Part shown: one piece after another, positions 28,736 to 63,209 of the stretch
How the letters are laid out: the number at the start of each line of letters is the position of its first letter
Position numbering within the stretch: the stretch's first letter is position 1
Notes under the pieces: model-generated
Database searches by the model: none
Told to the model about the DNA's origin: nothing
The model's input: only the letters and a program-made list of their open reading frames with translations
NCBI GenBank assembly: GCA_049302185.1
Contig: JBAQLV010000010.1
Span: 38,742 to 102,741 of the forward strand
Length of the DNA: 64,000 bases
Source: Thermodesulfovibrionales bacterium
Lineage (GTDB): Bacteria; Nitrospirota; Thermodesulfovibrionia; Thermodesulfovibrionales; UBA1546
Direction of reading: 5' to 3'
Program-made: the position numbers and the translations under genes

Positions 28736-28772
28736 TTCAATGATTGATTTTTTAACTTCTAACTGATTGCTA

Positions 28773-31676: not shown

Positions 31677-31984
31677 ATATCCTTATTGCCTCTCCAAACA
31701 ATTTAGTTAATGTCGTGGCTGTTTATTGATCTTTATCAGTTTTTTCGTTATTATTCTCGGTGCCGTTATTTTCTTTAATGCCGTGACCTGCCGTAATTTC
31801 ATTTATATTACATGAATCCCTTGATATATCTGAGAACATCATATGGCACTGGAAAAGCAACGCCGTCTTGAGTTGCCTGCTTAACTATATCGTGCCAGCT
31901 TCCGCCAAAAGTCTTCGCAACGCGCTCTGTCACCTTCACACTATTCGCAATCTCAACTACAACTAGGGGAATAATTAGGGGAAT

Positions 31985-32743: not shown

Positions 32744-32972
32744 TTCCAATTTTCCACCTCCCTAATTTTCCATAATTTTCCATTGTCCTAAAATTGTCCC
32801 TAAAATTGTCCCTAAAGCCGGATACAAGCCCAATGACATATGCATTTAGTCCAGCAGTCTCTGATGCAACGGGCTTCGATATATCTGTGATTTGTTTTTT
32901 ACTGTTTTCATCTGCATAGGAAAATATTGTGGTAGAAGACAATAAGAATATAACTGCTATAAAAAGTTTCAT
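32694..32972 (-). CDS. Hypothetical small secreted protein whose 3' half runs into the RAYT flanking repeats
   Basis: Signal-like MKLFIAVIFLLSSTTIFSYA. The C-terminal FRDNFRDNFRTMENYGKLGRWKIGKLG is a translation of the 12-bp repeats. Possibly disrupted. Confidence 0.3.
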   Translation of the reverse strand: MKLFIAVIFLLSSTTIFSYADENSKKQITDISKPVASETAGLNAYVIGLVSGFRDNFRDNFRTMENYGKLGRWKIGKLGTHPLLFDKRAAII

Positions 32973-33047
32973 TCCGTGATTCCCCTTTGCTCTTATCAGT
33001 AAAAAGAGCATATCTTATCGGCTAAAGTTCGATAGCACTTTGTATGT

Positions 33048-33695
33048 TTATTTATGATCAACTATATTTTCTTCTATAAGTTTATAAACAATGTTTTCTG
33101 CAAGCGTGTTAGCTATAGCAGACAAATCCACTGTTGATAGACCTAAATTATCTTTTGAGTATGCTGTTGCTGTCCATACAATTTTCAACTTTTCGCTCTC
33201 AAATGAAGCTTTGACATCAACTAAAAGAATATTAAACGTGACAGTCGTCTGGAATACATTAAAGCCTGGTGATTGTGATGTCTGGCTCTGATATGTCATT
33301 GTGTTACCCATAACCATACCGCTACCCATAGTTGATGAACTTGGGGGAATGTATAAACTGTTGGTATTGGCATTTAATGCTTTTAATATTATTGCTCCAT
33401 CTATATTGTTGTCAATTAATTTACGATTTAAATCTGAATTGCTATAATCAGTTACTGGTGGGAAAAGCTTCAAGCTAGAAACTGCTTTTATACTTGACTG
33501 AGAAAAATGCTCTACAAAAGCATCTTCAAACACTGCTCTTAGAGCAATATCAGATTCTGGTATAAAGATTATTAGATTTTTATATTTATTGTGAGAAAAC
33601 TCTTCATTCCTAACTGAATATAAAGAAGTTCCTGCACACGCTGTTAGATGTAATAGCGAAAAGAATAAAATTACACACTTCTTCACATTTTTCAT
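33048..33695 (-). CDS. Putative lipoprotein
   Basis: 215 aa with a signal peptide and lipobox LHLTAC. AT-rich, no recognisable catalytic motif. Confidence 0.55.
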   Translation of the reverse strand: MKNVKKCVILFFSLLHLTACAGTSLYSVRNEEFSHNKYKNLIIFIPESDIALRAVFEDAFVEHFSQSSIKAVSSLKLFPPVTDYSNSDLNRKLIDNNIDGAIILKALNANTNSLYIPPSSSTMGSGMVMGNTMTYQSQTSQSPGFNVFQTTVTFNILLVDVKASFESEKLKIVWTATAYSKDNLGLSTVDLSAIANTLAENIVYKLIEENIVDHK

Positions 33696-33884: not shown

Positions 33885-34343
33885 TTATGCGTTCAGGTTT
33901 TTAAGCATTTGCTTGACAGTTTTCTTTATCACAGGATGTTTTTTGTCTGGGGCAATCTCGCAAAGGGGCTTTAAGACAAAAGCCCGTTCATGCATATAAG
34001 GATGGGGAATTTCCAAGTCTTGAGTCTTTAAAATCAGGTCGTCATAAAAGAGAATATCTAAATCAATAACACGCGGCCCCCATTTGACAGTCTCTGTCCG
34101 CCCAATCTCTTTCTCTGTCTCTTCCAGAACTCTGAGAAGCTCTTCAGGTTTTTTATCCGTCTCTGCTTCAATTGCCATGTTGATAAACTTTGGCTGGTCT
34201 TTGACTCCCCACGGTTCTGTCTCATACATGCGCGATTGTTTCCTAACAACAATCCCGTTTTTCTCAATCAGCTTTATTGCTTGTCGGCAGTTCTCTTCCC
34301 TGTCTCCGAGATTTGAACCTATGCTGATGTAAGCGATTGCCAT
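33885..34343 (-). CDS. folK: 2-amino-4-hydroxy-6-hydroxymethyldihydropteridine diphosphokinase
   Basis: 152 aa with YISIGSNLGD, ETEPWG and RVIDLDIL. Confidence 0.92.
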   Translation of the reverse strand: MAIAYISIGSNLGDREENCRQAIKLIEKNGIVVRKQSRMYETEPWGVKDQPKFINMAIEAETDKKPEELLRVLEETEKEIGRTETVKWGPRVIDLDILFYDDLILKTQDLEIPHPYMHERAFVLKPLCEIAPDKKHPVIKKTVKQMLKNLNA

Positions 34344-34346
34344 AAA

Positions 34347-34417
34347 AGTGTCAGTGTCAGTTATCAGTGCGAGTGAATTATTTTACAGACACTAACCACT
34401 GACACTAATCACTGATT
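34347..34417. repeat. Inverted pair of hexa/heptamer arrays (AGTGTC/AGTTATC/AGTGAAT versus CACTAAC/CACTGAC/ACTAATC)
   Basis: It fills the folK-start to dapL-stop spacer and encodes the last 8 residues of the aminotransferase (KSVISVSG). Confidence 0.85.
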
Positions 34418-35570
34418 TAATCCTCTCAACCGTCTCTTTTATCTTCTCCACAGGCACTGTGAGCGCAAACCTGACATATCCTTCTCCTGGCGCTCCGAAA
34501 CCATTTCCGGGTGTTGCGAGCACCCCTGCCTTATTAAGAAGATGAGCAACAAAACCTGAAGAATCAAATCCTGAAGGCACTTTCGCCCAGAGATAGAATG
34601 TTGCCTTTGGTTTTATCAGATTAAAGCCAATGCCCTTTAAACCATTGTAAAGCGCATCTCTTCTGTCCTGATATGTTTTCCTGATGTCTGAGAGGATGGA
34701 ATCATCAGTATTGAATGCAGCAATGGCTGCCTCCTGAATTGCCTGAAACACACCTGAATCAAGGTTTGACTTTATCTTTCCGAGTCCTGCAATAACATCT
34801 TTATTGCCGGCAGCAAAACCGATTCTCCAGCCGGTCATGTTGTAAGTTTTTGAGAGTGAATGAAACTCTATGCCGACATCCTTTGCTCCTTCTATTTCAA
34901 GAAAGCTTATTGGCTTTTCATTGTCATAATAAACCTCTGAATACGCCGCATCATGGCATATTATGATGTTGTATTTTTTCGCAAGGCTTATCGCCTCTTT
35001 GTAAAATCCTGCGTCTGCTGTTGCAGACGTTGGGTTGTTAGGATAGTTTATGAACATGAGTTTTGCTTTTTTTAATATGTCCTCAGGAATTATTTTAAAA
35101 TCAGGGAGAAATCCGTTTTCTCCTTTTAGCGGCATTATGTAACTTTCACCGCCTGCAAACAATGTTCCCACAGGATACACAGGATAGCCCGGAGACGAAA
35201 CAAGAACAACATCGCCGGGATTTATGAATGCAAGAGGAATGTGTCCTATGCCTTCTTTAGAGCCGATAAGAGATAATACTTCTGTCTTTGGATCTAATGA
35301 GACATTGAATCTTTTTTTATACCACACTGCAACTGCATCTCTGTAAGAAAGCATTCCTTCATAAGAAGGATAGCGGTGATGAGCAGGATTTTCTACTGCC
35401 TTTTTCATAGCATTAACTATGTGTGCTGGAGTCGGAATGTCGGGGTCACCGATGCTCAAGTCTATAAGATCAATACCTTTTGCGAGAGCGTCCTGCTTCA
35501 TTTTATCTATTGCCGCAAAGAGATACGGCGGTAGGTTTTTTACCCTGTTGGATAACTGAACGGATATCAT
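34392..35570 (-). CDS. dapL: LL-diaminopimelate aminotransferase-type class I/II aminotransferase
   Basis: 392 aa with NLPPYLFAAIDK...IDLSIGDPDIPTP at the N-terminus and SLSKTYNMTGWRIG for the PLP lysine. Confidence 0.8.
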   Translation of the reverse strand: MISVQLSNRVKNLPPYLFAAIDKMKQDALAKGIDLIDLSIGDPDIPTPAHIVNAMKKAVENPAHHRYPSYEGMLSYRDAVAVWYKKRFNVSLDPKTEVLSLIGSKEGIGHIPLAFINPGDVVLVSSPGYPVYPVGTLFAGGESYIMPLKGENGFLPDFKIIPEDILKKAKLMFINYPNNPTSATADAGFYKEAISLAKKYNIIICHDAAYSEVYYDNEKPISFLEIEGAKDVGIEFHSLSKTYNMTGWRIGFAAGNKDVIAGLGKIKSNLDSGVFQAIQEAAIAAFNTDDSILSDIRKTYQDRRDALYNGLKGIGFNLIKPKATFYLWAKVPSGFDSSGFVAHLLNKAGVLATPGNGFGAPGEGYVRFALTVPVEKIKETVERIKSVISVSG

Positions 35571-35684: not shown

Positions 35685-36689
35685 ATGGATAATAACCAAT
35701 GGGAATTATATTTTGATGCTGTAAAGAACAAGAACTGGCAAAAGGCTGTGGATTCGCTTAACGCTATCCTGAAAACTAAGCCAAAAAATCCGAAGGTTCA
35801 TCTGAAGATCGGAGATGTCTTTCAGAAAAAAGGAGATATCAGGCGCGCTGTGTCGGCCTATCAGCAGTCCGCATGGCTTTTGATGAAAGACGGCTTCATG
35901 CAAAAGTCGCTTGCTGTTTTTAAGGTGATACTCAGGCTTGACCCGAATAATGCTGAGGCAATCAAGAGCGCCAAAGAGCTTATGATGGAGATTGAAGGCG
36001 CAAAAATAAAACCCGCTGAAGAGCTTTCTCTGCCTCCGCCTGTGGTTGAAGAGAAACCCGCTGAAGAGGCCGCTGCTGAATCTTATTTTACAGCAGGAGC
36101 AGAATTTGAACCGGAGAAAGAGCATGATATTTCTGTTGAGCCTCCTGCTGAAATGGATTTTATTGAACGGACATCATTTTACGGGGAATCTACGGAGACT
36201 ACGTCTATTCCTGAAGTGAAAGGAGAGGAAAAGATTGCTGTTCAACCTGAAGCAGAGGTGGAAGAGCCTGATTTGCGTATTCCGTTTCTGTCATCCCTTC
36301 CTGAAGATGAAATAAAACAGATAACCGAGAGGCTTAAAGCGCAGTCATTTTTGCCGGGGCAGAAGGTTGTTGAAGAGGGAGATTTCGGTGATTCTATATT
36401 TGTCATAACATCAGGCGAGGCTAAAGTCGTTGCGCATATACTCGGCACTGAAATAGAGCTTGCAACCCTGTCTGTTGGTGATGTATTCGGCGAAATGGCG
36501 TTTCTTACAGGAAGGCCGAGAACTGCTTCTGTCATTGCAGTTGATGAGCTTAGAGTAATGGAATTTAACAGGCTGATTCTTGAAGAGATACTTGAGAAAT
36601 ACCCTGAAATCCTGAAAAAATTAGAGGACTTCTACCAATCCCACCTTGAGGATACCCTTAGCAAGGTAAGAACGAAGATAAAAAAATAG
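35685..36689 (+). CDS. TPR plus cyclic-nucleotide-binding domain protein
   Basis: 334 aa with N-terminal TPR repeats, an acidic linker and a C-terminal cNMP-binding beta-roll (FGEMAFLTGRPRTASV). Confidence 0.8.
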   Translation: MDNNQWELYFDAVKNKNWQKAVDSLNAILKTKPKNPKVHLKIGDVFQKKGDIRRAVSAYQQSAWLLMKDGFMQKSLAVFKVILRLDPNNAEAIKSAKELMMEIEGAKIKPAEELSLPPPVVEEKPAEEAAAESYFTAGAEFEPEKEHDISVEPPAEMDFIERTSFYGESTETTSIPEVKGEEKIAVQPEAEVEEPDLRIPFLSSLPEDEIKQITERLKAQSFLPGQKVVEEGDFGDSIFVITSGEAKVVAHILGTEIELATLSVGDVFGEMAFLTGRPRTASVIAVDELRVMEFNRLILEEILEKYPEILKKLEDFYQSHLEDTLSKVRTKIKK

Positions 36690-36719
36690 GGCGCTAAAAA
36701 TATTTAGCGCCCTATTTTT
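36687..36719. terminator. Bidirectional intrinsic terminator
   Basis: Stem TAGGGCGCTAAA / TTTAGCGCCCTA flanked by an A-run and a T-run, between convergent genes. Confidence 0.75.
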
Positions 36720-38646: not shown

Positions 38647-38685
38647 TTATTCTCCTCTATTTAGTGAACAGTTTTTTACTAACGA

Positions 38686-40128
38686 CTATTCACTATTCAC
38701 TTTATTAATTACTGGCAAGGTTATAACCACGGTACTGCCGTCTCCTGCAATGCTGTGGATGTTCACTTTTCCTCCGTGCTCCTCAACAACTCTTTTTGTC
38801 ATTGCAAGCCCGAGCCCAAGCCCGTTCCTTTTTGTAGTATAGAATGGTTCAAAGACCTTTGCTAATTCATCTTCAGGAATCCCTTTCCCTGTATCGCTGA
38901 TAGTGATTGAAAGCATTCCTTCCGCAGGTTCTGTTTTTATAGTCAATGCGCCTCCGTCAGGCATTGCCTGAAATGCATTCAATACGACGTTAAAGACGCA
39001 TGTTTTTATAAGGTCAGTGTCTATGTTAAGTGATGGAAGGAAATCGCAGTCTTTTATTATCTTTATCTTTTCTGCCTCTGCTTTTGCCCAGATTATTTCT
39101 ATTGTCTCTTCAAGGAGTTTGCCGATGTCTGCTTTTTGGAGATTGAGTTTAAGCGGTTTCCCGTAATCAAGAAACTCCTCTACGAGTTTGTTCAGCCGCT
39201 GAATTTCCTGTTTGATGTTTGCTATAAGAGAGTGGAATTTTTCTGCATCAATGTTACCGTCAGGAGAGAACTTTTCTTTTATATAGTCTACGCTTAGGCT
39301 TATAAAATTCAGAGGGTTCCTTATCTCATGGGCTATGCTTCTTGAAAGCTGGCCGATGCCTGAAAGGTGTTCTGCCTCGCGCAGTTTTTCCTCCATCTGC
39401 CTCTGCTCGCGCAGCTTCTGAACCATAAAATTAAAACTCTGCGTAAGCTCTCCTATCTCATCTTTGCTGTCAGTTACAAGGGTTTGTTCAAGGTCTCCTG
39501 CCGCAATCCTGTTTGCGGCAGAGACTACATTGTGTATCGGTTTTGTGTATCTCCATGAAAGGAGCATGGCTAAGCCGATGCCGAGTCCGAAGACCATAAG
39601 AGTGCTTATAATCCTTTTTATAATATTGATGCGCAGCGCTTTTGAAAAATCATCAGTATTGATTCTCAGATGAATATATCCGTAATGCTCTTCGCCCGCG
39701 ATAACAGGCACTATTACATTGTATGTCTTTCCCTCTTCGCGCGATACGGATTCGCCGAGTTCTGCCTTGATAATCAGTTCCTTCCTTTTCTGGCTCAGAG
39801 GTTTGCCAATCTTTGTAGGGTTTGAACTTGCAATGATCTCATCGGCATTGCTGATTATTGAAATCTCTTTTACCTCTTTTACATTCAGGCTCTGAAGGTA
39901 TTGCTGGAGTCTTGCCTCATCCGTAGAACCCTGGCTTGTTATCTCTTTAACGCCTATCTGAATTGCCTTTGAAAGCTCAACAATCTGCGCCTCAAATGCC
40001 TTATGCAGCGCCTTCTCGGATTGTGAATAGAGGATCATAAGGATTGACGTGAGGATAAAGCTCAGGAATATCATCATCAGGATGAGCTTTTTATTCAGAG
40101 AAAGGCCGAGAAAAAAGTCTTTTAGCAT
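38686..40128 (-). CDS. Sensor histidine kinase (periplasmic sensor, HAMP, HisKA, HATPase_c)
   Basis: 480 aa with H-box SIAHEIRNPLN and N/G boxes. Its last codons come from the heptamer array CTATTCA x2 at 38686-38706. Confidence 0.9.
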   Translation of the reverse strand: MLKDFFLGLSLNKKLILMMIFLSFILTSILMILYSQSEKALHKAFEAQIVELSKAIQIGVKEITSQGSTDEARLQQYLQSLNVKEVKEISIISNADEIIASSNPTKIGKPLSQKRKELIIKAELGESVSREEGKTYNVIVPVIAGEEHYGYIHLRINTDDFSKALRINIIKRIISTLMVFGLGIGLAMLLSWRYTKPIHNVVSAANRIAAGDLEQTLVTDSKDEIGELTQSFNFMVQKLREQRQMEEKLREAEHLSGIGQLSRSIAHEIRNPLNFISLSVDYIKEKFSPDGNIDAEKFHSLIANIKQEIQRLNKLVEEFLDYGKPLKLNLQKADIGKLLEETIEIIWAKAEAEKIKIIKDCDFLPSLNIDTDLIKTCVFNVVLNAFQAMPDGGALTIKTEPAEGMLSITISDTGKGIPEDELAKVFEPFYTTKRNGLGLGLAMTKRVVEEHGGKVNIHSIAGDGSTVVITLPVINKVNSE

Positions 40129-41739: not shown

Positions 41740-43343
41740 AAGTTGTTACAGCGGAAGAGATGAGAGAGATTGACAGGATGACCATAAGGGATTATGAAAT
41801 AGCCGGTAGTGTGCTCATGGAGAGGGCAGGGCTTGCCGTTGCAGGAAAAATAAGGGAACTTTTTGAGCGGCGGAGAAAGGTTATAGTTCTTTCGGGTGGA
41901 GGCAATAATGGCGGAGACGGCATTGTTGTTGTAAGAAATCTTCATGAATGGGGCTGGAATGTAAAAATCATTCTTCTTTCAAAGGAAAACAAGCTAAGCC
42001 CGGACTGTCTGTTGCAATATAAGATAGCGAAAAAATCAGGCGTGCCGGTTGAGTTTCGGGATTATATCACAGAAAAAGACCTTCATAGCGCTTTGGTTGT
42101 AGATGCAATTTTCGGCACCGGTTTAAGCAAAAATATCACAGGAAAGACGGCCGAGATTATATCGTTTATCAATGCCTCGGATGCTCCTGTAATTTCTGTT
42201 GACATTCCCTCAGGCATTTCATCAGATACAGGGCAGATTATGGGAGAGGCGGTCAGGGCGGATTATACCATAGCGTTCGGTATTCCCAAGAGAGGTCATC
42301 TGCTTTACCCGGGCGCTGATTATACCGGAAGGCTTTTTATTGAAGATATCGGCTTTCCTGAAGAACTGCTTCACTCGGAAAAGCTTAAAGCAGAGCTTCT
42401 TGAAAAAAGAGACATATTTTTATTGATTCCCGAAAGGCAGAGGTATTCGCATAAAGGCGATTATGGCCATGTGCTTGTTATTGCAGGCTCAAGAGGGAAA
42501 ACAGGCGCTGCATTCATGTGTGCAAAGGCATGTCTAAGGTCAGGCGCAGGGCTTGTGACAATAGGAGTTCCGGAATCACTGCTGGATGTTTTTCAGTCAA
42601 GGGTTACAGAAGAGATGACCCTGCCTTTGCCTGACAAAGGAGACGGGACGCTTTCATCAAAGGCATTGGAAAAGATTCTGGAATTTCTTTCTGAAAAGGC
42701 TGATGTGCTTGCAATTGGTCCGGGAATTTCCGTTACCGATGATACTAAGAAGCTTGTCAGAGAACTTTTACTGAATTCAACAGCGTCGGCTGTTATTGAT
42801 GCTGATGCTATAAATTCGCTTCAGGGCAATAAGCAGATACTCAAAAAAGCGAGGTCGCCGCTGATTCTTACGCCTCATCCAGGAGAGATGGCGAGACTCT
42901 TACAGAAGTCACCCCCCCCACCCATCCCTCCCCCTCGAGGGGGGAGGGTGAGGGAGGGGGTGAAAGCTCTAACTTCTGAACTCCAAACCAAAATAGAGCA
43001 GGACAGGATTAATACTGCCATGTTTTTTGCAAAAGAGACAGGGACATATCTTGTTCTTAAAGGCGTGCCGACAGTTATTGCTGAACCGGAAGGCAGAGTG
43101 TTCATCAATCCGACAGGCAATTCCGGTATGGCGAGCGCCGGAACAGGGGATGTCCTGACAGGAATGGTTTCAGGGTTTTTAGGGCAGGGGTTAAACCCGC
43201 TTGAGGCGTCAATTCTTGGAGTTTATATGCATGGACTTGCCGGAGACATAGCTGCGAAAAGCAAGGGAGAACATTCGCTGATTGCATCCGATATTACAGA
43301 TGCGATTCCGGAGGCGTTTCATCTATTGAGGATTATTTCATAA
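41736..43343 (+). CDS. nnr: Bifunctional NAD(P)H-hydrate repair enzyme (epimerase/dehydratase)
   Basis: 535 aa with a YjeF_N domain (GGGNNGGDG) and a carbohydrate-kinase-like C domain (GTGDVLTG). It carries an in-frame GC-palindrome insertion. Confidence 0.92.
   Translation: MKVVTAEEMREIDRMTIRDYEIAGSVLMERAGLAVAGKIRELFERRRKVIVLSGGGNNGGDGIVVVRNLHEWGWNVKIILLSKENKLSPDCLLQYKIAKKSGVPVEFRDYITEKDLHSALVVDAIFGTGLSKNITGKTAEIISFINASDAPVISVDIPSGISSDTGQIMGEAVRADYTIAFGIPKRGHLLYPGADYTGRLFIEDIGFPEELLHSEKLKAELLEKRDIFLLIPERQRYSHKGDYGHVLVIAGSRGKTGAAFMCAKACLRSGAGLVTIGVPESLLDVFQSRVTEEMTLPLPDKGDGTLSSKALEKILEFLSEKADVLAIGPGISVTDDTKKLVRELLLNSTASAVIDADAINSLQGNKQILKKARSPLILTPHPGEMARLLQKSPPPPIPPPRGGRVREGVKALTSELQTKIEQDRINTAMFFAKETGTYLVLKGVPTVIAEPEGRVFINPTGNSGMASAGTGDVLTGMVSGFLGQGLNPLEASILGVYMHGLAGDIAAKSKGEHSLIASDITDAIPEAFHLLRIIS
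42910..42962. repeat. GC-rich palindromic mini-element, in frame in nnr
   Basis: cacccccccacccatccctccccctcgaggggggagggtgagggagggggtg, centred on CTCGAG. It encodes SPPPPIPPPRGGRVREG. Confidence 0.9.
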
Positions 43344-43353
43344 GCTATGTTTA

Positions 43354-43551
43354 AGCAGACAGGACATAGCATCTTCGCTTTCGCCTCAGGCGAATTCGCC
43401 GAGGAGGACAAAAATTTATTTACTAAGACGGCTACAAGTAAGGATACATTCTTGTCATTCTCCTCCTCCGGCTTGACCGGGGGATTGACCGGAGAATCCA
43501 GAAAGGCGCTGGATGCCCGATTAAGAACTTCGGGCATGACGTCAAAAATAA
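43354..43551. repeat. Composite of a family B terminus and hairpin plus family A hairpin units
   Basis: 43354-43377 matches the reverse complement of 19618-19641 at 23/24. 43373-43412 matches 13185-13222. 43447-43551 starts like 46347. Confidence 0.8.
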
Positions 43552-45565: not shown

Positions 45566-45600
45566 AGTTATGAGTTTAGAGTTAAGAGTTAGAAATTAAA
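45566..45600. repeat. Heptamer array AGTTATG AGTTTAG AGTTAAG AGTTAGA AATTAAA
   Basis: Five units make up essentially the whole nadK-UDG intergenic spacer. Confidence 0.85.
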
Positions 45601-46323
45601 ATGACAAATATTGCAGAAGACATAAAGACAGTGCTTGAGTTTTATCAGGCGATGGGGATTGAGAGAATACCCTTAAACATAGCGCTGAAGAGCAGAAGCG
45701 CAGAAGTGCAGAAGCCACCCCCCCATCCCCCCCTTGGTAAGGGGGGGCGAAGGGGGGGTGATTATTCGGAAAAGGTTATTGCTTTAAAAAAATTGCGCGA
45801 TGAGATTGGTGATTGTCAGAGGTGCAAACTCTCAAAGGGGAGAAAGAACATTGTATTCGGGGAAGGCAGCATAGATGCGGAAATAATGTTCATTGGCGAA
45901 GGGCCCGGCGAAGACGAGGACATTCAGGGGCGGCCTTTTGTGGGCAAGGCAGGACAGCTGCTTACAAAACTGATAGAGAAGATGGGATTTAAGAGGGAGG
46001 ATGTCTATATCGGCAATATCGTGAAGTGCCGGCCTCCCGGTAACAGGGACCCTGAGGAAGACGAGATTAACGCCTGTTCTCCGTTCATAAAAAAACAGGC
46101 GGCGATAATCTCTCCGAAGGTTATAGTTTCGCTTGGCCGCATATCTACGCAGACGCTCATCGGCATGAAGATTCCGATAGGCAAGCTGAGGGGCAAATTC
46201 TATCAGTTTGAAGATATTCCGCTGATGCCGACATTTCATCCGTCTTATCTCCTGAGAAACCCCAAAGACAAATGGCTTGTATGGGAAGATGCGCAAAAGG
46301 TTCTTGAAAGGCTGGGAAAGTAG
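45601..46323 (+). CDS. Uracil-DNA glycosylase, family 4
   Basis: 240 aa with CQRC..., GEGPGEDED and HPSYLLRN. It carries an in-frame GC palindrome in the N-terminal extension. Confidence 0.9.
   Translation: MTNIAEDIKTVLEFYQAMGIERIPLNIALKSRSAEVQKPPPHPPLGKGGRRGGDYSEKVIALKKLRDEIGDCQRCKLSKGRKNIVFGEGSIDAEIMFIGEGPGEDEDIQGRPFVGKAGQLLTKLIEKMGFKREDVYIGNIVKCRPPGNRDPEEDEINACSPFIKKQAAIISPKVIVSLGRISTQTLIGMKIPIGKLRGKFYQFEDIPLMPTFHPSYLLRNPKDKWLVWEDAQKVLERLGK
45716..45759. repeat. GC-rich palindromic mini-element, in frame in the UDG gene
   Basis: cacccccccatcccccccttggtaagggggggcgaagggggggtg. It encodes PPPHPPLGKGGRRGG. Confidence 0.9.
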
Positions 46324-46346: not shown

Positions 46347-46419
46347 CATTCTTGTCATTCCTGCGCAAGCAGGAATCCAGCAGTTTGAAAACTGGATTCC
46401 CGTTTTCACGAGAATGACA
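46347..46419. repeat. Family A hairpin units (GTCATTCCTGCGCAAGCAGGAATC; CCAGCAGTTTGAAAACTGGATTC)
   Basis: Intergenic between UDG and ubiX. It has the same ACATTCTTGTCATTC start as 43445. Confidence 0.8.
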
Positions 46420-46433
46420 GATAAGGACTTAAG

Positions 46434-47066
46434 ATGAAGAAATATGTTTTTGCCATAAGCGGTGCAAGCGGTTCCATAATCGGGATAAGAGTTCTAAGAG
46501 AATTACTCAAGACTTCTCATGTTCATCTCATAATATCATCACAGTCATTCTCCATTATAAAAGATGAGACAGGCATTGATTGGGCAATTAAAAAAAGTTC
46601 AAAGTTTAAAGTTCAAAATTCAAAGTTAAGAGAAGATAAAATCAGGAAGTATTTTAAAACAGACAGGCTTTTCTTTTATGAGAACACACAGATGGATGCG
46701 CCTGTCGCAAGCGGTTCATTTAAAACAGACGGGATGCTCATTGTGCCATGTTCCATGAAGACGCTTTCAGGCATTGCGAATGGTTATGCAAATAACCTCA
46801 TAGAGCGGGCTGCTGATGTGACGATAAAAGAGGGAAGGACACTGCTTCTTTCGCCGAGGGAGATGCCGTTCAGCGCAATACATCTTGAGAACATGCTCAA
46901 ACTTGCAAGAATCGGGGTGAAGATTGCGCCTCCTGTTTTAGCCTTCTACCACAAGCCTAAAAAGATTGACGATATGATTAATTTCACAGCAGGCAAAATC
47001 CTTGACGCTGTCGGAGTGGAACATGAGATTTATAAGAGATGGGGAACTGATAGCGGTAAGAAATGA
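46434..47066 (+). CDS. ubiX: UbiX-family flavin prenyltransferase
   Basis: 210 aa with [20 protein letters not shown] and REMP. It contains a heptamer-derived insert. Confidence 0.9.
46596..46630. repeat. Heptamer array AGTTCAA AGTTTAA AGTTCAA AATTCAA AGTTAAG inside ubiX
   Basis: It encodes [12 protein letters not shown] within a loop that is about 15 residues longer than in E. coli UbiX as I recall it. Confidence 0.85.
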
Positions 47067-49270
47067 CGATTAAAGAACATATCAAGCTGATTATTAAGGC
47101 TGAGCACTGGGACCCCTTTCAAGCGCTTGGGATGCATGAAGTAAGAACGGAAGGCAAAAAGGCAGTAACAGTTCGCGCATTCATGCCTGATGCTGATAAG
47201 GCGTGGGTTGTTGATGCCGGCAAAAACAAATCCTATGAAATGGAAAAAACGAGCAAGGCAGGTTTTTTTGAGAAGGACTTTGAAAAAAGGAAAGATTTTT
47301 TCCAATATAAACTCAAGATAAAAACATCCGATAACCGCATTGCTGAATTTTTTGACCCTTATTCATTCCTGCCTGTGCTTTCGGATTTTGACCTTCATCT
47401 TATAGGCGAGGGAAGCCACTACAAGAAATACGAAAAACTCGGAGCCCACGTTATTGAGGTTAATGGGATTAAAGGCATTCATTTTGCAGTATGGGCGCCG
47501 AATGCGAAAAGGGTCAGCGTTGTGGGTGATTTCAACAACTGGGACGGAAGAAGGCATCAGATGCGCGTCCTTGGCTCATCAGGCGTGTGGGAGATATTTG
47601 TGCCGGGGCTTGATGAAGGAGAGGTTTATAAGTTTGAGATAAAGTCAAAGTCCGGTGAAATATTTCTGAAGGCAGACCCATATGCATTTTATTTTGAGGT
47701 CAGGCCAAAAAGCGCATCTGTTGTATATGACATAAACAGATACCGATGGAATGACAGCGAATGGCTTGAAATGCGTTCAGAAAAAAACTGGTTTGAATCT
47801 CCTGTCTCTGTTTATGAGGTTCACCTTGGCTCATGGATGCGTGTGCCAGAGGAAGAAAACCGTTTTCTCACTTACAGAGAGCTTGCTGATAAACTGATCG
47901 GCTATGTAAAGGATATGGGATATACACATATTGAACTCATGCCTGTAACAGAGCATCCGCTGGACGCTTCGTGGGGTTATCAAACAGTGGGGTATTTTGC
48001 TCCGACAAGCAGACACGGCGCGCCTGAAGACTTTATGTATTTTGTGGATAAATGCCACCAGAACAAGATAGGCGTTATCCTTGACTGGGTTCCAGCGCAT
48101 TTTCCAAAAGATGCGCATGGGCTTGGATATTTTGACGGCACAGCGCTCTATGAACATGCAGACCCGAGGAAAAGCGAGCACAAAGACTGGGGCACGCTGA
48201 TATTTAACTACGGAAGAAATGAGGTAAGGAATTTTCTGATATCAAGCGCGCTTTTCTGGCTCGAAAAATATCACATAGACGGTTTGCGTGTTGATGCTGT
48301 CGCCTCAATGATTTACCTTGATTATTCAAAAAAAGAAGGTGAATGGGTTCCAAATATATTCGGAGGAAGGGAAAACCTTGAGGCGATAGATTTCCTGAAA
48401 AGATTTAACGAAGTTGTTCACCGGCAGCATCCCGGCATTCTCACGATTGCAGAGGAATCAACTGCGTGGACAGGCGTATCAAGACCTACGTATCTCGGCG
48501 GGCTTGGCTTCAGCCTTAAGTGGAATATGGGATGGATGCATGACATTCTTGAGTATTTTTCAAAAGACCCTGTTTACAGGGAACATCACCACAGCAATCT
48601 TACGTTCAGCCTTCTTTATGCCTTTACGGAGAACTTTATGCTCGTCCTTTCTCACGATGAGGTTGTGCACGGGAAGAGTTCAATGCTCGGCAAGATGCCC
48701 GGAGATATGTGGCAGAAGTTTGCAAACCTTAGACTGCTGTATGGTTTCATGTACGGACATCCGGGGAAGAAACTGCTTTTTATGGGAAGTGAGTTCGGGC
48801 AGTGGGATGAGTGGGACTTTGACCACAGCCTTGACTGGCACCTTCTTCAGTATGAGCCTCATCAAAAACTTCAGCATTATATAAGAGACCTAAACAGGCT
48901 TTACAGAACAAAGCCGCCGCTACATGAGGTTGATTTCAGTTATTCAGGCTTTGAGTGGATAGATTTTCACGATACAGAGCAGAGCGTAATATCATTTATA
49001 AGAAAGGGGAAAAGGGCTGACGATTTCCTTGTGTTTGTGTGCAACTTTACTCCTTTGCCGAGATATAATTACAGGATAGGCGTGCCTGAATCGGGTTTAT
49101 ATAAAGAGATTTTAAACAGTGATTCTGCCGAATACTGGGGAAGCGGAATTGGAAATACAGAGGGTATTTTATCAGAAAATATTTCATGGAATGGAAGGCC
49201 TTATTCTATAAGCATCACATTGCCGCCGCTGGCAGTTGTCGTATTCAAGCCTGACAGGCTAAAGAACTGA
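47063..49270 (+). CDS. glgB: 1,4-alpha-glucan branching enzyme
   Basis: 735 aa with GH13 motifs [17 protein letters not shown] and EESTAW. Confidence 0.95.
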
Positions 49271-49999: not shown

Positions 50000-50004
50000 G
50001 GATT

Positions 50005-50033
50005 GTTCACAGTTCACGGTTCACAGTTCACGG
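50005..50033. repeat. Heptamer array GTTCACR x4
   Basis: gttcaca gttcacg gttcaca gttcacg, between the antitoxin stop and the four-helix-bundle start. Confidence 0.9.
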
Positions 50034-50071
50034 ATTGGGGACAGGGTTTTTTGCTGTCAACAGGAGGTAGC

Positions 50072-50265
50072 ATGGGTTTTAATTTTGAAAAACTGGATGT
50101 TTACAAAGAAGCACTATATTTTGCAAATGAGATCTATCAGATCACTAAACGGTACCCAAAAGATGAGATATTTGGGATAACGAATCAAATAAGAAGGTCG
50201 TCTACGTCTATAGCTCAAAATATTGCAGAGGGCAGTGGTCGAACAAAGAAAGAGTTTCCTCCTGA
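50072..50265 (+). pseudogene. Four-helix-bundle protein (23S rRNA intervening-sequence protein / Avd-like family), 3'-truncated
   Basis: MGFNFEKLDVYKEALYFANEIYQITKRYPKDEIFGITNQIRRSSTSIAQNIAEGSGR is a typical family N-terminus. It breaks off after about 65 residues and reads straight into kinase sequence. Confidence 0.7.
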
Positions 50266-51520
50266 AAGAAGAAATGAGGCATGTGTGAAATGCCACGCTG
50301 CCGTGCGCGGCAACCTTAAGGATGTAGATATCTTTGTGAAATCACTTGAAAAGGATCATGAGAAGGACATAAAAGATTTTGATGCCTTCAGATTTTATGT
50401 GCTTGGATTTTTCTTTATTGGAGCGGTTTTTATTGTGTTTTATATAAGGCAGAGCATTGTTATGCCTGTAGGAAGGCTTAAGGATGCAGCAAAAGAGATT
50501 GAAAAAGGAGATTTTTATGTCAGGGTTGATGTAAAAACGAGCGATGATATCGGGACACTCAGTAAGACATTCAATGAAACGGCTAAGTCTCTTGATTTTC
50601 TTTTTAAAGAGGATATGGAACTTCTGCAGGAACTTGAAGAAAAAGTAAAGGAGAGGACGAAGGAGCTTGAGGGTGCAAACCTTGAGCTTCAAACCTTCAA
50701 CAGAGAGATTCAGCTAAGGAGGGTTGAGGCTGAGGAGGCAAGGCTTTAGGCAGAGGCTGCAAGCAGGGCAAAATCAGAATTCCTTGCAAATATGTCGCAT
50801 GAATTAAGGACACCGTTGAATTCAGTCATAGGCTTTTCAGAGGTTTTGACTGAAGGACTGGCAGGCGATATCACAGACAAGCAGAAAGAATATATTCAGG
50901 ATATATGGGGAAGCGGGAAACATCTTTTGCGGCTTATAAATGATATGCTTGACCTCTCAAAGATAGAGGCGGGCATGATGGAGCTTGACCTCAGTGAAGT
51001 TGACATTAAAGAGCTTATTGAGGGAACTATGCTGATGTTTAAGGAGAAGGCAATAAAACACAAAATTAAATTTACTTCTAACATCCCTGATGATATAGGG
51101 TCTGTGACTGCTGATGCTGTGAAGATAAAACGGGTGCTCCTGAATCTCCTCGGCAATGCCTTCAAGTTTACGGATGACGGTGGAGCCGTCTCTGTGCGGG
51201 CGCGGAGGATACATGATACAAGATACATGATGCAGGATAAAGATATCATGTATCGTGAATCAGGCATCGTGCATCCCGACGGAAATTTCGATAAAATTTC
51301 CGTCGCTGACACAGGCATCGGCATTTCCCCTGAAGACCAGAAGAGACTCTTTCAGCCGTTCCAGCAGCTTGAATCTACGCTTACAAAGAAATATGAAGGC
51401 ACAGGACTTGGACTCAGCATCAGCAAAAGGATTGTTGAATTTCACGGCGGCAGGATTTGGGCTGAGAGCGAGGAAGGAAAGGGAAGCAGGTTTATATTTG
51501 TAATACCGGTGAGGAAATGA
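50266..51520 (+). pseudogene. Sensor histidine kinase, 5'-truncated and interrupted by an in-frame TAG
   Basis: CVKCH heme-c motif, one TM, HAMP and a coiled coil. TAG at 50747-50749 is followed in the same frame by [22 protein letters not shown] (H-box) and HATPase_c. Confidence 0.75.
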
Positions 51521-51906
51521 AAATATTGATTGTTGAGGATAATGAAGAGAACCTGAAGCTTTTTAATATCATAGTGGAATCCGGGGGACATACCACTATT
51601 CTTGCAAGGGACGGTGAAGAAACTGTTGAGACCGCTAAAAGGGAAATTCCTGACATCATACTTATGGATATACAGATGCCGAAGATGAACGGTATTGAGG
51701 CGGCAAAAATACTTAAATCAGAGCAGTCCACTGCAAAGATACCGATAATAGCCCTTACGGCATATGCGATGATAGAGGAAAGAGAAAAATTGGGCGGAGA
51801 GTGGTTTGACGGCTACATTTCAAAGCCGGTTGGTGTAAAGGACATTCTGAATGTAATTGATGAAATAACTCAGCAGAAAGGGGAGAGATACGATACCACG
51901 GACTGA
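51517..51906 (+). CDS. Single-domain response regulator (CheY-like receiver)
   Basis: 129 aa with the DNEEN acidic pocket, phospho-acceptor MDIQMP and ALTA...K. Confidence 0.9.
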
Positions 51907-51928
51907 GAAAGGATATTTAAATGAGCCG

Positions 51929-53077
51929 ATAGGCATTATCCTTCTTAATCTCGGCGGGCCTGATTCTATTCAGGCTGTAAAGCCGTTTCTTTACAATTTA
52001 TTTTCAGACAGAAAGATAATTCAACTTGGCCCTCCATTCCTTCAAAAACCGATTGCACGGCTAATCTCAACACTGAGGTCTAAAAAAACAGAAAGTTGTT
52101 ACCGCCTCATAGGAGGCAGGTCTCCGATACTTGATATTACCAATGCACAGGCAAAGGCGCTGGAAGAAACGCTAAATCAGTTCAGCGTTCAGGGTTCAGC
52201 GTCAGAAAACTCCGAACTCCTAACTCCTAACTCCGAGAAATCCCCCCATCCCCCCTTTGTTAAAGGGGGGCGAGGGGGGATTAAAGTTTTCGTAGGAATG
52301 CGTTACTGGCATCCTTTGATAGAAGACGTGATACCTCAGATTTATAATGATGGAATTAGAAAACTTATCGCCATCAGCCTTTATCCCCAGTATTCTCTGG
52401 CAACATCAGGCTCAGCGCTTGTTAAATTTAAAGAAGCTGTAATAAATACTTATCAGCCGGATAAAACAGAGGTTGAAAAAATGAATAGTTCTTTTGAGTA
52501 TCATGGCAAGCCTTCTTTTACTGTTCACTATTCACTATTCACTATTCACTGTATTTTATCATGGTATGACCATCCGCTTTATATTAAGGCATTGGTGGAT
52601 GTGATAAAGAAGGGGATTGAATCTTTTAACTCCAAACTCCAAACTCCAAACTCTGAACTTAATATCCACGTTCTCTTCAGCGCCCACAGCCTTCCTGAAA
52701 AGTTTATTGATGAGGGTGACCCTTATGTGCGTCATATTGAGAGAACGATTGAAGAGATTGTAAAGCGGATACCAATAAAATGGCATCTGAGTTATCAATC
52801 CAAGAGCGGGCCTGTAAAATGGCTTGGGCCTTCAACAGACGAAAAACTTAAAGAACTTGCAGGCAGGAATGTTAAGAATATTCTCATTGTCCCGATAAGT
52901 TTTGTATCTGACCATATTGAGACGCTTTATGAGATTGATATATTATATATGCAGATGGCAAAAGACCTCGGAATTAATCTGAGACGAACAGATTCCCTGA
53001 ACACACATCCGCTTTTTATTGAAGCGCTGAAAGATATAGTAATAAAAAACATGAAGGAGCTTGGTTGGACAGAATAG
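51929..53077 (+). CDS. hemH: Ferrochelatase (start codon unresolved)
   Basis: The conserved N-terminus GIILLNLGGPDS...FLYNLFSD...IGGRSP is in frame from at least 51932. There is no ATG/GTG/TTG in frame after the stop at 51866-51868. The track start at 52298 would delete about 120 conserved residues. SAHSLPE and DHIETLYE motifs are present. Confidence 0.85.
   Translation: MGIILLNLGGPDSIQAVKPFLYNLFSDRKIIQLGPPFLQKPIARLISTLRSKKTESCYRLIGGRSPILDITNAQAKALEETLNQFSVQGSASENSELLTPNSEKSPHPPFVKGGRGGIKVFVGMRYWHPLIEDVIPQIYNDGIRKLIAISLYPQYSLATSGSALVKFKEAVINTYQPDKTEVEKMNSSFEYHGKPSFTVHYSLFTIHCILSWYDHPLYIKALVDVIKKGIESFNSKLQTPNSELNIHVLFSAHSLPEKFIDEGDPYVRHIERTIEEIVKRIPIKWHLSYQSKSGPVKWLGPSTDEKLKELAGRNVKNILIVPISFVSDHIETLYEIDILYMQMAKDLGINLRRTDSLNTHPLFIEALKDIVIKNMKELGWTE
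52178..52282. repeat. Composite in-frame insertion in hemH: GTTCAG-type heptamers, inverted AACTCCN heptamers, then a GC-rich palindrome (52241-52281)
   Basis: Read directly. It encodes SVQGSASENSELLTPNSEKSPHPPFVKGGRGG just upstream of the conserved VGMRYWHP. Confidence 0.9.
52521..52555. repeat. Heptamer array CTGTTCA CTATTCA x3 CTGTATT inside hemH
   Basis: It encodes FTVHYSLFTIHCI. The same CTATTCA unit appears at 38686-38699. Confidence 0.9.
52628..52660. repeat. Heptamer array AACTCCA x3 AACTCTG AACTT inside hemH
   Basis: It encodes NSKLQTPNSEL just before the conserved LFSAHSLPE. Confidence 0.9.
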
Positions 53078-54730: not shown

Positions 54731-54806
54731 TGTCATTCCGACTTGTTCGGAATCCTTCCTGCTTGTCAGGAATCGTCAGAAAGATGCTGGACAAGCCAGC
54801 ATGACA
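54731..54806. repeat. Family A hairpin mosaic, inverted relative to 4684-4765
   Basis: tgtcattccgacttgttcggaatc + cttcctgcttgtcaggaatc + gatgctggacaagccagcatgaca, the same three modules as the 4.7-kb copy. Confidence 0.85.
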
Positions 54807-56960: not shown

Positions 56961-58071
56961 TTAGGCGATGGGCAGAGCACCATTTTTTGTTCTCTTGATC
57001 TTCAATCCCACGTCTTTTTTCCGTCGTAGCTAAGAATGTTGAAGATGTAAACTCGCTTTATTCTAAGTTTCCTTTACCTATATTACAGTTTGAACAAAGA
57101 GTTTTAAGATTTTCAAAAGTAGTTTCACCATCTTTTGACCAGGGTATTATATGATCAACATGTAATATTATTTTAGGGTCAGTCGCCGGAGATCTGCCAC
57201 AGTATCGGCACTTAAAATTATCTCTTCTCATTACCTTAAATCTAAGTCTATCATTGACTTCCCTTTTAGTTTGATGTGTATTCATTAGTTTTTGTGATGA
57301 TTTTGGTCTCTTGGCTGATGGTGTTTTATCTGCAAACCCAGAAACTAATTCTTCATTGGGATATTCTATAATTGTTGCTTGAGGTAATATGCCCTCTTTA
57401 ATAATTATAGAATTTTCACCCTCAATTGTTGTTTCTTCTTCTTTATTGACATACTCAATAAATCGCTCAAGTGATTTCCGCCAAGTACCAAAATTATGCA
57501 CATAACCACTTCCTGAATATTTAGAAAACGGTATTCGCATATCAGAAAAATGTGGTTGCCTACCGAGTTTTATCCAAACTTCTTCTAAATTTTTAAAATA
57601 CTCCTCATCCGATATACTTGGATGTTCTCTTCTTTTTAAACCGGTTTTTTCTTTTGCTTTTATCCAAGAACCAAATCTATACTCAAGTGTTGAACTATGA
57701 AATTTCCCATGCCGGTTATATTCATCTCTAGTAATTGAATCATTTTTTAACTTAAAAGAAACCCGTTGTAAGTCTGCAATTAATTCTGCATCTTTTATAA
57801 TATTTTTTGTTCTACTTTTTCCGCTTTTTAAACCTGCTTTCGCCAAAGCGTTAGACCAAGAGCCAAATCTGTTATAAAATATGGTAACTCCAAATTTACC
57901 ATGCTTTTTATATTCCCGTTGGGTTAATGAATCTGTTTTTAACTCGGAAGCGACATGTTTTAAGTCCGCAATTAATTCTTTATCTGCAATATGTCTGTTA
58001 AATTTATCTAACTCAAATTTAATCATATTTACTCAACTCTTTTTTATTTTGGTGCTCTGCCTTTCGCCTAA
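56961..58071 (-). mobile_element. HNH endonuclease cassette bounded by 22-bp imperfect inverted repeats
   Basis: TTAGGCGATGGGCAGAGCACCA (56961-56982) matches the reverse complement of 58050-58071 at 20/22. The interior is AT-rich. Confidence 0.35.
57058..58026 (-). CDS. HNH endonuclease with three N-terminal homing-endonuclease-associated repeats
   Basis: 322 aa with three copies of LIADL..V...L..DS(L/I)T..EY..HGKF......RFGSW..A. The C-terminus reads CRYCG...HVDHIIPWSKDG...NLKTLCSNCN. Confidence 0.85.
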   Translation of the reverse strand: MIKFELDKFNRHIADKELIADLKHVASELKTDSLTQREYKKHGKFGVTIFYNRFGSWSNALAKAGLKSGKSRTKNIIKDAELIADLQRVSFKLKNDSITRDEYNRHGKFHSSTLEYRFGSWIKAKEKTGLKRREHPSISDEEYFKNLEEVWIKLGRQPHFSDMRIPFSKYSGSGYVHNFGTWRKSLERFIEYVNKEEETTIEGENSIIIKEGILPQATIIEYPNEELVSGFADKTPSAKRPKSSQKLMNTHQTKREVNDRLRFKVMRRDNFKCRYCGRSPATDPKIILHVDHIIPWSKDGETTFENLKTLCSNCNIGKGNLE

Positions 58072-58435: not shown

Positions 58436-58540
58436 TTAGTAGATAATATATTCCCCAAATCCTTTATTGTCAATTGAAAATCTCCCTCTGTTTCTACCAA
58501 TTTAGAAATGTCCGGTTTTATGTTATTGCTCAATGCGGTT

Positions 58541-58631
58541 GTCATTCCCGCGTGTCGGGAATCTTTCTTTCCCGCACTCAGGCGTGTTCGCTGTGGCAAC
58601 AAAGAAAGATGCTGGACAAGCCAGCATGACA
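58541..58631. repeat. Family A hairpin units
   Basis: gtcattcccgcgtgtcgggaatc ... gatgctggacaagccagcatgaca, upstream of ilvB. Confidence 0.8.
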
Positions 58632-63135: not shown

Positions 63136-63209
63136 GAAGTGGGAAGTGAGAACCAAGAAAAAAAACATCTATTTCTTACTTCTTACTTCCTACTTCCTAC
63201 TTCTAAGTT
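63130..63209. repeat. Inverted pair of heptamer arrays (AAGTGAG AAGTGGG AAGTGAG ... CTTACTT x2 CCTACTT x2 CTAAGTT)
   Basis: It spans the peptidase stop and the TPR start. The second array encodes the TPR protein signal peptide YFLLLTSYFLLLSS. Confidence 0.9.

Follow-up and report, generated by a model that had tools for sequence, protein, structure and literature searches.

Tandem heptanucleotides have been known in bacteria since 1990 as short tandemly repeated repetitive (STRR) sequences, since 2007 as long simple-sequence repeats (long SSRs) and since 2015 as TAACTGA repeats. The heptamers of the STRR and long SSR type have been without an explanation since 1990, and we know of no agreed mechanism or function for tandem heptamers. 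In heterocystous cyanobacteria the STRR heptamers reportedly described by Mazel et al. in 1990 comprise STRR1 (CCCCAGT), STRR2 (TTGGTCA) and STRR3 (CAACAGT). The small dispersed repeats (SDR) of Nostoc, reportedly described by Elhai et al. in 2008, are said to be hairpins of about 20-27 nt that are nested in heptamer arrays and in one another, whereas the Rickettsia palindromic elements of 100-150 nt, attributed to Ogata et al. in 2000, are said to lie in frame in conserved genes, where they are tolerated as an extra peptide. The present work concerns the arrays of imperfect 7-nt units that a first-pass annotation had noticed in a 64 kb stretch (the window) of a Thermodesulfovibrionales metagenome-assembled genome (MAG), and in particular in the spacer between the genes for NAD kinase (nadK) and UDG. 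These arrays are interpreted here as STRR-like heptanucleotide (sometimes octanucleotide) long SSRs that are lineage-wide, non-essential and fast-evolving and are not gene-boundary signals, a reading to which we assign a probability of about 0.6. They behave like selfish or neutral DNA and not like signals at gene ends.

The TAACTGA repeats that MacGregor (2015; PMC4679880) described from marine Beggiatoaceae, Bacteroidetes and some cyanobacteria form sets of 2-6 copies, which are mostly situated in spacers just 5' of start codons and often overlap the upstream stop codon. In one orientation they contain stop codons in all frames and in open reading frames (ORFs) the opposite orientation is used; ribosome-binding sites are rare, as are inverted pairs (PMC4679880). 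In the account of Mrazek (2007) that is given in PMC4679880, heptanucleotides are the most abundant class of long SSRs in most genomes and polymerase slippage is the hypothesis put forward; their occurrence in many bacteria is reported from the same work in PMC4679880 and PMC4692102. In Xanthomonas, GGGAATC arrays vary among close relatives and are sometimes found as inverted pairs (Rehm et al., 2015; PMC4692102). The REP and REPIN sequences that are associated with a REP-associated tyrosine transposase (RAYT) are short inverted pairs that fold, and the Y1 gene is flanked by an inverted hairpin-forming motif (Bertels and Rainey, 2011; PMC3116915).

Period-7 arrays were called with Tandem Repeats Finder (TRF) in the window and also in relatives amounting to about 0.8 Mb (the L-numbered loci), and 40 dinucleotide-preserving shuffles served as control. 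The window yielded 16 period-7 rows against a shuffle mean of 1.27 (maximum 5) and 8 period-8 rows against 1.8 in the dinucleotide shuffles. In 813 kb of Thermodesulfovibrionales DNA, taken from around nadK, HypF and a transposase gene, 186 period-7 arrays were present (2.3 per 10 kb), with mostly 2-5 arrays per 10 kb around nadK; in an outgroup of 11 unrelated loci (175 kb) there were three, or about 0.17 per 10 kb. The pervasive, STRR-like arrays claimed by the first-pass annotation, which had itself proposed the shuffle control, are thus a lineage-wide feature that exceeds both shuffles and outgroups. Every position that it listed holds an array: the one at 6123 has an 8-nt unit, the one at 24277 consists of three imperfect units and falls under the TRF threshold, and the one at 28752 is weak. 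Additional arrays were found at 22762, 23693, 34388, 51208, 52208 and 63173, together with an 8-mer array at 45681. The window arrays have 2-6 units each and many unit types, some of them octanucleotides, and 85 distinct units occur among the 186 arrays of the relatives (median 4.2 copies, maximum 7.6). The most enriched trinucleotide was AGT/ACT, present in 21 of 45 distinct units where 7.1 were expected (p=1e-6) and, by our own reading of the units, in 12 of 15 window arrays. Only 32 of the 85 unit types of the relatives contain it, 17 of these 32 with an A at position 5. Because of these proportions the AGT-N-A-N-N frame that had been proposed for the units describes a large subset and not the whole family.

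The closest relatives of the window NAD kinase (93-98% identity) were found in MAGs that carry the labels Nitrospirae, Nitrospirota, Thermodesulfovibrionales or, once, Nitrospinota; more distant ones go down to 69% identity. Four independent Logan assemblies (L001-L004) contain the same region at 99.3-99.9% identity. Because these reproduce the arrays without gaps, the arrays are not assembly artefacts, a possibility that was also ruled out by their presence in dozens of MAGs. The contigs L002-L004 terminate at small repeat elements. Dense heptamer arrays were also seen in distant HypF loci (L072-L111, HypF 44-47% identical), especially in L080, L093, L075, L092 and L096, with for example 11-12 arrays in 15-18 kb and arrays of up to 12 copies; no such array is present in 15 of the 40 loci. 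L093, an Anaerolineae (Chloroflexota) locus by its best HypF matches, carries TCAGTTA, the reverse complement of TAACTGA, in 7.7 copies. A cyanobacterial origin of these array-rich loci was ruled out, as HIP1 octamers are absent from them.

At the nadK-UDG site the ORF of NAD kinase ends at 45561 and that of UDG starts at 45601. The spacer of 39 nt consists of AAAAC, the four units given in Table 1 and AATTAAA; five units had been claimed. TRF reports this array at 45566-45591 with 3.7 copies and 84% matches. Comparison among related genomes, which had been proposed as a check, showed that the same sites hold other unit families, other copy numbers or nothing. In this spacer AGTTAAG-type units occur in the window, L005 and L016, CAGGTGT-type units in L008 and L012, CAGTATA-type units in L011 and GCTGTCA-type units in L013; the array is degenerate in L014, reduced to a single unit in L015 and absent from L007, where the spacer is 8 nt long. 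Spacer lengths take any value among the relatives.

The junction of HypB and HypF shows how an array can grow. L039 and L040 have a native seed, GAAAGTGAA followed by ATG, and no array, and the number of units rises from none in these loci to two in L032, three in the window, four in L035 and five in L033. In this series the array has grown in place, one or more whole units at a time. HypF itself has four insertion hotspots, each of which holds differing arrays, hairpins or nothing among the relatives, and at hotspot H4 L032 and L036 differ by 21 nt, i.e. by three units, with the frame kept. Arrays were also found to recur at unrelated places. The Family 2 composite (GTTCAGC)n-GCGNCAGAAA-(ACTCCGA)n, with its conserved linker GCG[A/T/C]CAGAAA, is present at four non-homologous sites, namely at HypF hotspot H4 (L032, L034, L036 and related loci), in the ferrochelatase gene of the window (52180-52236) and twice in the Nnr gene, near the N-terminus in L005 and elsewhere in L009, where the window has a polyC/polyG hairpin. 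The Family 1 pair (GGATACA/GGATTCA)n...(CATGCAT)n, also seen as GATACAG/CATGCAT, was found at at least five loci, including HypF hotspot H2, the histidine kinase gene of the window (51208) and further loci in L007 and L008. A GATGCAA-type array occupies a spacer in L009 that is empty and without a seed in the window, L005 and L008. The composite recurrence and this seedless array are not producible by in-place slippage, whereas copying between sites can produce them.

With ORF-based gene calls corrected by Pfam, the positions of 21 window arrays were tested. The first-pass annotation had placed the arrays at stop/start junctions or in frame inside genes and had proposed an enrichment test at gene ends, and both parts of this description agree with the counts. 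Eight of the 21 are no more than 10 nt away from a stop codon, where 1.0 would be expected (P<0.0002), and ten are in contact with a gene boundary, where 3.4 would be expected (P=0.0006). The seven spacers that hold arrays are all between co-directional genes, and in five of them (6123, 24277, 34388, 38685 and 63130) the upstream stop codon is inside a unit. The array at 6123 precedes an ABC ATPase gene (6180), and that at 24277 includes the HypB stop codon and abuts the HypF start codon. Because units like AGTTAAG, when repeated, give stops in all three frames, the association with stop codons is also expected from selection alone: such units can survive only outside genes or at their very 3' end.

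The remaining 11 arrays are inside genes and all of them are read through in frame; three are in HypF, four in ferrochelatase and one each in the genes for a PF02636 methyltransferase, a PF02441 flavoprotein, a histidine kinase (HATPase) and UDG. The adjacent arrays at 22736-22785 in HypF encode QQSAVSSQEQKTRHSS; their arms are 4/7 complementary and fold no better than shuffles. In the flavoprotein gene the variable segment of the window and of all 10 relatives has a length of 1 mod 3, and in four of these relatives (L005, L011, L013 and L015) a hairpin has been inserted inside the segment. The repeat-encoded stretches of ferrochelatase are extra segments between conserved blocks, as judged against human ferrochelatase (2qd3), and at the site of the 52628 array relatives have 8-nt ATTCACC-type arrays.

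Two of these genes have further peculiarities. In the ferrochelatase frame no ATG, GTG or TTG (51902-51940) is found before residue ~130 in the window and L007; L011 has a normal ATG. Translation may start at an ATT after AAGGAG (L007), or a 1-nt indel may be present at an out-of-frame ATG (51922). The HAMP/HisKA/HATPase histidine kinase gene at 50003-51520 is broken by an in-frame TAG at 50747-50749, within a 21-nt tandem repeat, and its N-terminal ORF opens with a PF05635 fragment (23S-rRNA-intervening-sequence, Avd-like; profile positions 1-55 of 106).

Many arrays are inverted pairs that fold on either strand into long imperfect hairpins (z -3 to -9), such as those of the aminotransferase-HPPK spacer (34343-34422, -30 kcal/mol, z -6) and the C39 peptidase-TPR spacer (63126-63210, -34 kcal/mol, z -9). 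The folding energies of sense and antisense strands of the inverted pairs did not differ in a consistent direction. Selection at the RNA level on these pairs was thereby ruled out, and because of this result they look like palindromes at the DNA level.

The arrays also receive other small elements. Element E, a hairpin of 27 nt, is present as 100% identical copies that occupy different positions in L012 (8157), L014 (8443 and 10998) and L015 (11811), and as near-identical copies at other sites, including 43381 in the window. Most copies are located within a 7- or 8-nt array, directly after TC; one lies in the loop of a polyC/polyG hairpin (L006). Between L014 and L015 it is precisely present or absent at two sites without target duplication, the filled sites being the flavoprotein array in L015 and the UDG 8-mer array in L014. 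Element E is a very small mobile element. An 18-nt hairpin, TCCCGA-N6-TCGGGAC, is inserted directly behind a TCA in arrays of both HypF and the flavoprotein gene, and the small-hairpin insertions are nested. A third group, the polyC/polyG hairpins (CCCCCCATCCCCCC-loop-GGGGGGCGAGGGGGG), has its C-arm always first. In HypF, UDG and ferrochelatase a copy is translated in frame, into peptides like PPHPPLGKGGRRGG, and the copy at 42913 is within the Nnr ORF. Many copies occur in relatives, often next to heptamer arrays, which hairpins of this group abut or whose centres they replace. The precise, duplication-free insertion in L014 versus L015 does not support an origin of the 7-nt period in target-site duplications of a transposon.

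Palindromic sequences of other kinds were noted as well. An element with the ends TGTCATTCC...GGAATGACA occurs at 4738-4781, 46353-46419, 47748-47756, 54731-54752 and 58540-58631, with six exact 9-mers in the window where 0.64 would be expected. One copy (46380) is the end point of the Logan contig L002, and L008 has a copy in the aminotransferase-HPPK spacer, where the window has the heptamer pair. Adjoining this element, amid genes of the + strand, an HNH endonuclease with three homing-endonuclease-associated repeats is encoded on the - strand (57058-58026). Perfect palindromes are present at 62575-62617 (19 bp), in the 5' part of the C39-peptidase ORF, and at 36682-36719 (17 bp); the latter, which lies between convergent genes, is a bidirectional terminator of the textbook kind.

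A candidate enzyme is encoded in the window itself. The RAYT-like Y1 protein possesses HUH and Tyr motifs and has as its best NCBIfam model the REP-associated tyrosine transposase NF047646, with 74.3 bits at a cut-off of 80 (IS200, 25 bits); a sequence search gave no relative in the PDB. Its gene is flanked by a 15-bp inverted repeat, TTAGGGACACATCCC (31988-32002 and 32726-32740), which also flanks the homologues in L112-L119 (72-86% identity, different genomic contexts). On both sides of the gene in the window (31964-32002 and 32726-32816) there are, besides the inverted repeat, arrays whose tandem units of 8-12 nt copy the ends in part. In five of eight homologous loci the inverted repeat has short tandem arrays next to it, built from partial copies of an end or junction; those upstream are rich in purines and those downstream in pyrimidines. 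The TTAGGGACACATCCC motif was found in the window only at the Y1 gene and in none of 111 loci (~0.9 Mb sampled). Two diverged Y1 copies are present in GCA_016208915.1, and in L118 about 35 nt of target sequence are directly duplicated on both sides of the Y1 element. The segment 32000-36000, which contains the Y1 gene, is the part of the window with the lowest GC content (0.383), and three ORFs there (31101-31676, 32694-33011 and 33048-33695) have no Pfam or NCBIfam match.

Taken as long SSRs, the arrays lengthen and shorten in place by slippage of units, in 7-nt steps in spacers and by 21 nt in the one difference seen inside HypF. Whole composites, often inverted pairs whose 5' arm is rich in purines and whose 3' arm is rich in pyrimidines, have been copied to non-homologous sites, and the arrays are preferred landing pads of GC-rich hairpins of 18-45 nt, which enter after TC or TCA without target duplication. 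Selection would set persistence: units with stops in all frames would remain only in operon spacers or where they overlap the upstream stop codon, and stop-free orientations would persist in frame in tolerant segments of enzymes. It is conceivable, at low confidence, that the hairpins owe their mobility, and the arrays perhaps their seeds, to a HUH transposase (Y1, RAYT-like) such as that at 32013-32684.

Several findings weigh against this interpretation, and they are given here with the explanations on which they bear. Slippage alone, starting from chance 7-nt duplications, with 7-nt loops that would evade mismatch repair or suit the polymerase, as Mrazek suggested, and with nothing mobile, would account for the HypB-HypF unit series from a native seed and for the copy-number differences in 7-nt and 21-nt steps, and it agrees with heptamers being the most over-represented class of long SSRs in many bacteria according to Mrazek (2007) as cited in PMC4679880. 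It is nevertheless unlikely in view of the two-array composite that recurs with the same linker, the Family 1 pair at its several loci, the L009 array, for which the unoccupied sites of three relatives contain no seed, and the recurrence of unit families across sites and genomes while orthologous sites differ. Between the strain-level contigs of 99.3-99.9% identity there was no copy-number variation, which means that slippage is not fast on the time scale of strains. In 25 of 26 distinct inverted pairs from Thermodesulfovibrionales and the distant HypF loci the purine-rich arm is 5' (p=8e-7); counted by distinct unit family, our count is 17 of 18. A palindrome reads alike on either strand, so that this polarity cannot be due to the orientation of genes; slippage and selection do not explain it either, and it points to a directional mechanism. 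The polarity does place the pyrimidine-rich arm 3', as would suit transcription terminators or attenuators at gene ends, and some inverted pairs fold into the long hairpins mentioned above. A role in termination or coupling, which had been put forward at the outset, is not supported. The stems are imperfect and rich in AT, arrays without an inverted partner do not fold and hairpin strength shows no preference for the sense strand. A terminator scan of the window had no array among its hits and did hit GC-rich palindromes elsewhere (e.g. 36682-36719), and an Rfam covariance-model search of the window at the gathering score returned two tRNAs and no array, by which a known RNA family or riboswitch was ruled out. 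Arrays are moreover situated within operons and, for about half of them, within genes of conserved enzymes (HypF and ferrochelatase among them), places at which termination would do harm, and at nadK-UDG the unit families differ among relatives, with none in L007. That the arrays are terminators is therefore most improbable.

A function after transcription was also considered for the arrays at gene boundaries. These could bind a protein that contacts single-stranded RNA periodically, either S1, Csp or CsrA-like, as has been proposed for TAACTGA, or a HutP/TRAP-like ring; or, in a variant, all-frame stop pads could reset ribosomes before a start codon that has no Shine-Dalgarno sequence, the in-gene copies being spill-over. 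The enrichment at stop codons, only between co-directional genes, is as this explanation would have it. The conserved triplet with variable spacing resembles the UAG-N4 sites of HutP. Boundary arrays are oriented, with the purine-rich (AGT-type) strand as the sense strand in 26 of 32 cases across relatives; the HypB-HypF junction has retained the AAGTTAA family in L032-L038 as well as in the window; and by our reading several start codons 3' of arrays lack a Shine-Dalgarno sequence, arrays ending 0-8 nt before starts without GGAGG (45601, 24276 and 34343). These three properties could point beyond mere long SSRs and would also be predicted by a post-transcriptional function, and a like pattern in Beggiatoaceae has been interpreted in that sense (PMC4679880). 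Against it stand the 11 of 21 arrays inside genes, the absence or replacement of arrays at the nadK-UDG spacer in close relatives (L007, L010 and L015), the 85 different units without a single motif and the fact that no candidate binding protein was found. A role of boundary arrays in translation is possible; as an explanation of the arrays, post-transcriptional signals are given the same small chance as slippage alone. A further hypothesis is that the arrays are no passive products of slippage but are made at small DNA hairpins by a strand-specific enzyme, with the conserved RAYT-like Y1 (HUH) transposase as the best candidate and the inverted pairs as what would be miniature or scar forms of such elements. 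This is considered because the tandem end copies at the Y1 element (five of eight loci) share their polarity with 25 of 26 inverted pairs, in two phyla; it is quite unlikely, and if true it would provide a mechanism for the STRR and long SSR heptamers of cyanobacteria, Beggiatoaceae, Xanthomonas, Anaerolineae and Nitrospirota. In its more specific form, the Y1 protein would nick beside hairpins and reiteratively duplicate the adjacent 7-12 nt, or repeats would be added to 3' ends at breaks. The presence of the gene with its HUH and Tyr motifs and the bordering arrays favour this, as does the insertion of the small hairpins after a fixed short motif without target duplication, which is also how elements of the IS200/IS605 type insert. 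Yet the terminal motif is not dispersed, most heptamer units are unlike it, the NF047646 score is just under the cut-off and the association comes from eight loci; to our knowledge, the HUH reactions known so far yield no tandem duplications. Hairpin E, furthermore, lies within direct and not inverted arrays, so that there the arrays are targets and not products. By-products of this particular kind are distinctly improbable. The link between Y1 and the heptamers is a lead of low confidence and no enzyme is tied to the arrays by direct evidence, which weighs against the long SSR interpretation as well.

Table 1. Arrays and associated elements of the window (window coordinates; x, copies of the unit)
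Position	Strand	Feature	Context
6123-6156	+	8-nt array GGTGAATA x4.2	includes stop of HlyD-family gene (4888-6135)
22736-22785	-	inverted adjacent arrays AGTGACG x2.4, CTGACTG x3.4	in frame, HypF hotspot H4
23267-23309		polyC/polyG hairpin, further copy
23693-23724	-	TTAACTT x4.6 (sense AAAGTTA)	in frame, HypF hotspot H1
24277-24299	-	array, sense GAAAGTTAAGAGTTAGAAGTTAA then ATG	HypB-HypF junction
28752-28765	-	two units, sense CAGTTAG AAGTTAA	spacer between two methyltransferase genes
29588-29617	-	CTAACCC x4.3 (sense GGGTTAG)	in frame, PF02636 methyltransferase
31964-32816	-	RAYT-like Y1 (HUH) transposase region	gene 32013-32684, 223 aa, PF01797
34347-34417	-	inverted pair, AGTG-type arrays	fills aminotransferase-HPPK spacer, includes upstream stop
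38685-38701	-	AGTGAAT x2.4 (sense)	includes histidine kinase stop; upstream of sigma-54 response regulator gene
42913-42960		polyC/polyG hairpin, further copy
43381-43408	+	27-nt mobile hairpin element E (TCGCCTCAGGCGAGTCGCCGAGGAGAC), 92% copy
45566-45593	+	flagged array AGTTATG AGTTTAG AGTTAAG AGTTAGA	fills nadK-UDG spacer
45681-45715	+	8-nt array AGCGCAGA x4.4	in frame, UDG N-terminus, abuts polyC/polyG hairpin
45716-45760		polyC/polyG hairpin, further copy
46594-46627	+	AAAGTTC x4.9	in frame, PF02441 flavoprotein
50005-50033	+	GTTCACA/GTTCACG x4	begins 6 nt past stop of CopG antitoxin gene
51208-51268	+	GATACAT-type inverted pair (Family 1)	in frame, histidine kinase HATPase domain
52180-52236	+	composite (Family 2) (GTTCAGC)3 GTCAGAAA (ACTCCNA)4	in frame, ferrochelatase
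52239-52282		polyC/polyG hairpin element	in frame, ferrochelatase (KSPHPPFVKGGRGG)
52520-52550	+	ACTATTC x4.4	in frame, ferrochelatase
52628-52653	+	AACTCCA x3.7	in frame, ferrochelatase
63130-63204	+	inverted pair AAGTGAG x3.3 ... TTCTTAC x4.6	C39 peptidase-TPR gene spacer, includes upstream stop

The repeats have practical consequences, as they break metagenome assemblies, mislead gene callers on start codons and swell conserved proteins with odd low-complexity peptides (five inserts in ferrochelatase, four hotspots in HypF). The lineage offers an unusually rich and tractable comparative set, in which many MAGs at graded divergence have the same sites filled, empty or differently filled, together with copied composites, mini-hairpins nested in arrays, a strict polarity of the arms and a candidate enzyme. 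If boundary arrays affect downstream translation, they would constitute a widespread regulatory layer in uncultured anaerobes.

Compared with the systems described at the beginning, the arrays resemble the cyanobacterial STRR sequences, as these are reportedly constituted, in their tandem 7-nt units of several families at many dispersed loci, typically in operon spacers, in CAGT- or AGT-containing units (CCCCAGT, CAACAGT) and in having no assigned function. They differ from them in being found in another phylum, in being short (median 4 units, at most 7.6 copies) and in lying for about half of their number in frame in conserved genes. The Nostoc SDR are said to share the precise insertion of small hairpins nested in heptamer arrays, but their sequences are unrelated to those studied here, where hairpins are also translated in frame. 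With the Rickettsia palindromic elements, as reported, the common trait is the presence of small palindromic repeats in frame in conserved protein-coding genes; those elements are not built of heptamers and belong to another lineage. As in REPIN/RAYT systems there are short inverted pairs that fold into hairpins and a Y1 gene between inverted copies of a short motif, whereas here the arms are tandem heptamers and the motif flanking Y1 is not dispersed (~0.9 Mb).

The likeness to the TAACTGA system, i.e. 2-6 copies in one orientation near starts or over upstream stops, holds for only about half of the arrays. Stops in every frame of one orientation, scarce ribosome-binding sites, the use of the opposite orientation within ORFs and the occurrence of inverted pairs are further points in common. 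That system has one heptamer as compared with at least 85 unit types here, and the in-gene copies described here lie in core enzymes and not at the ends of proteins. A search for the units ruled out identity with STRR1-3, TAACTGA or GGGAATC: in the 813 kb there was one CCCCAGT x2 and no such tandem of TTGGTCA or CAACAGT, HIP1 octamers were absent, and in the Thermodesulfovibrionales loci no exact TAACTGA x2 was present, the related CTAACTG and TCAGTTAG occurring only as single variants. An excess of head-to-tail tandem units (of 5-11 nt by definition) over what composition predicts and whole-unit copy variation among relatives, which define long SSRs in the sense of Mrazek (2007) as conveyed in PMC4679880 and PMC4692102, were both found. 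Judged by the same accounts, heptanucleotide long SSRs and the GGGAATC arrays share with the present arrays the period-7 excess, the intergenic bias, the variation at the same site, occasional inverted pairs and the proposal of slippage. The arrays described here are different in that they are not of the G-quadruplex type, that composites are copied between loci and, relative to the long SSRs so described, that genes are occupied in frame although the period is not a multiple of three. The first-pass annotation knew of no equivalent description for this kind of genome. For Nitrospirota none was found in the literature searched, and very similar repeats have been reported in other bacteria. The class of heptanucleotide tandem repeats is thus already known, and the feature is more extensive than was first noted. 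New are its occurrence in the phylum Nitrospirota, the in-frame colonisation of core enzymes, the dispersal of composites, the polarity of the arms, the nested mini-hairpins and the arrays at the ends of the Y1 element.

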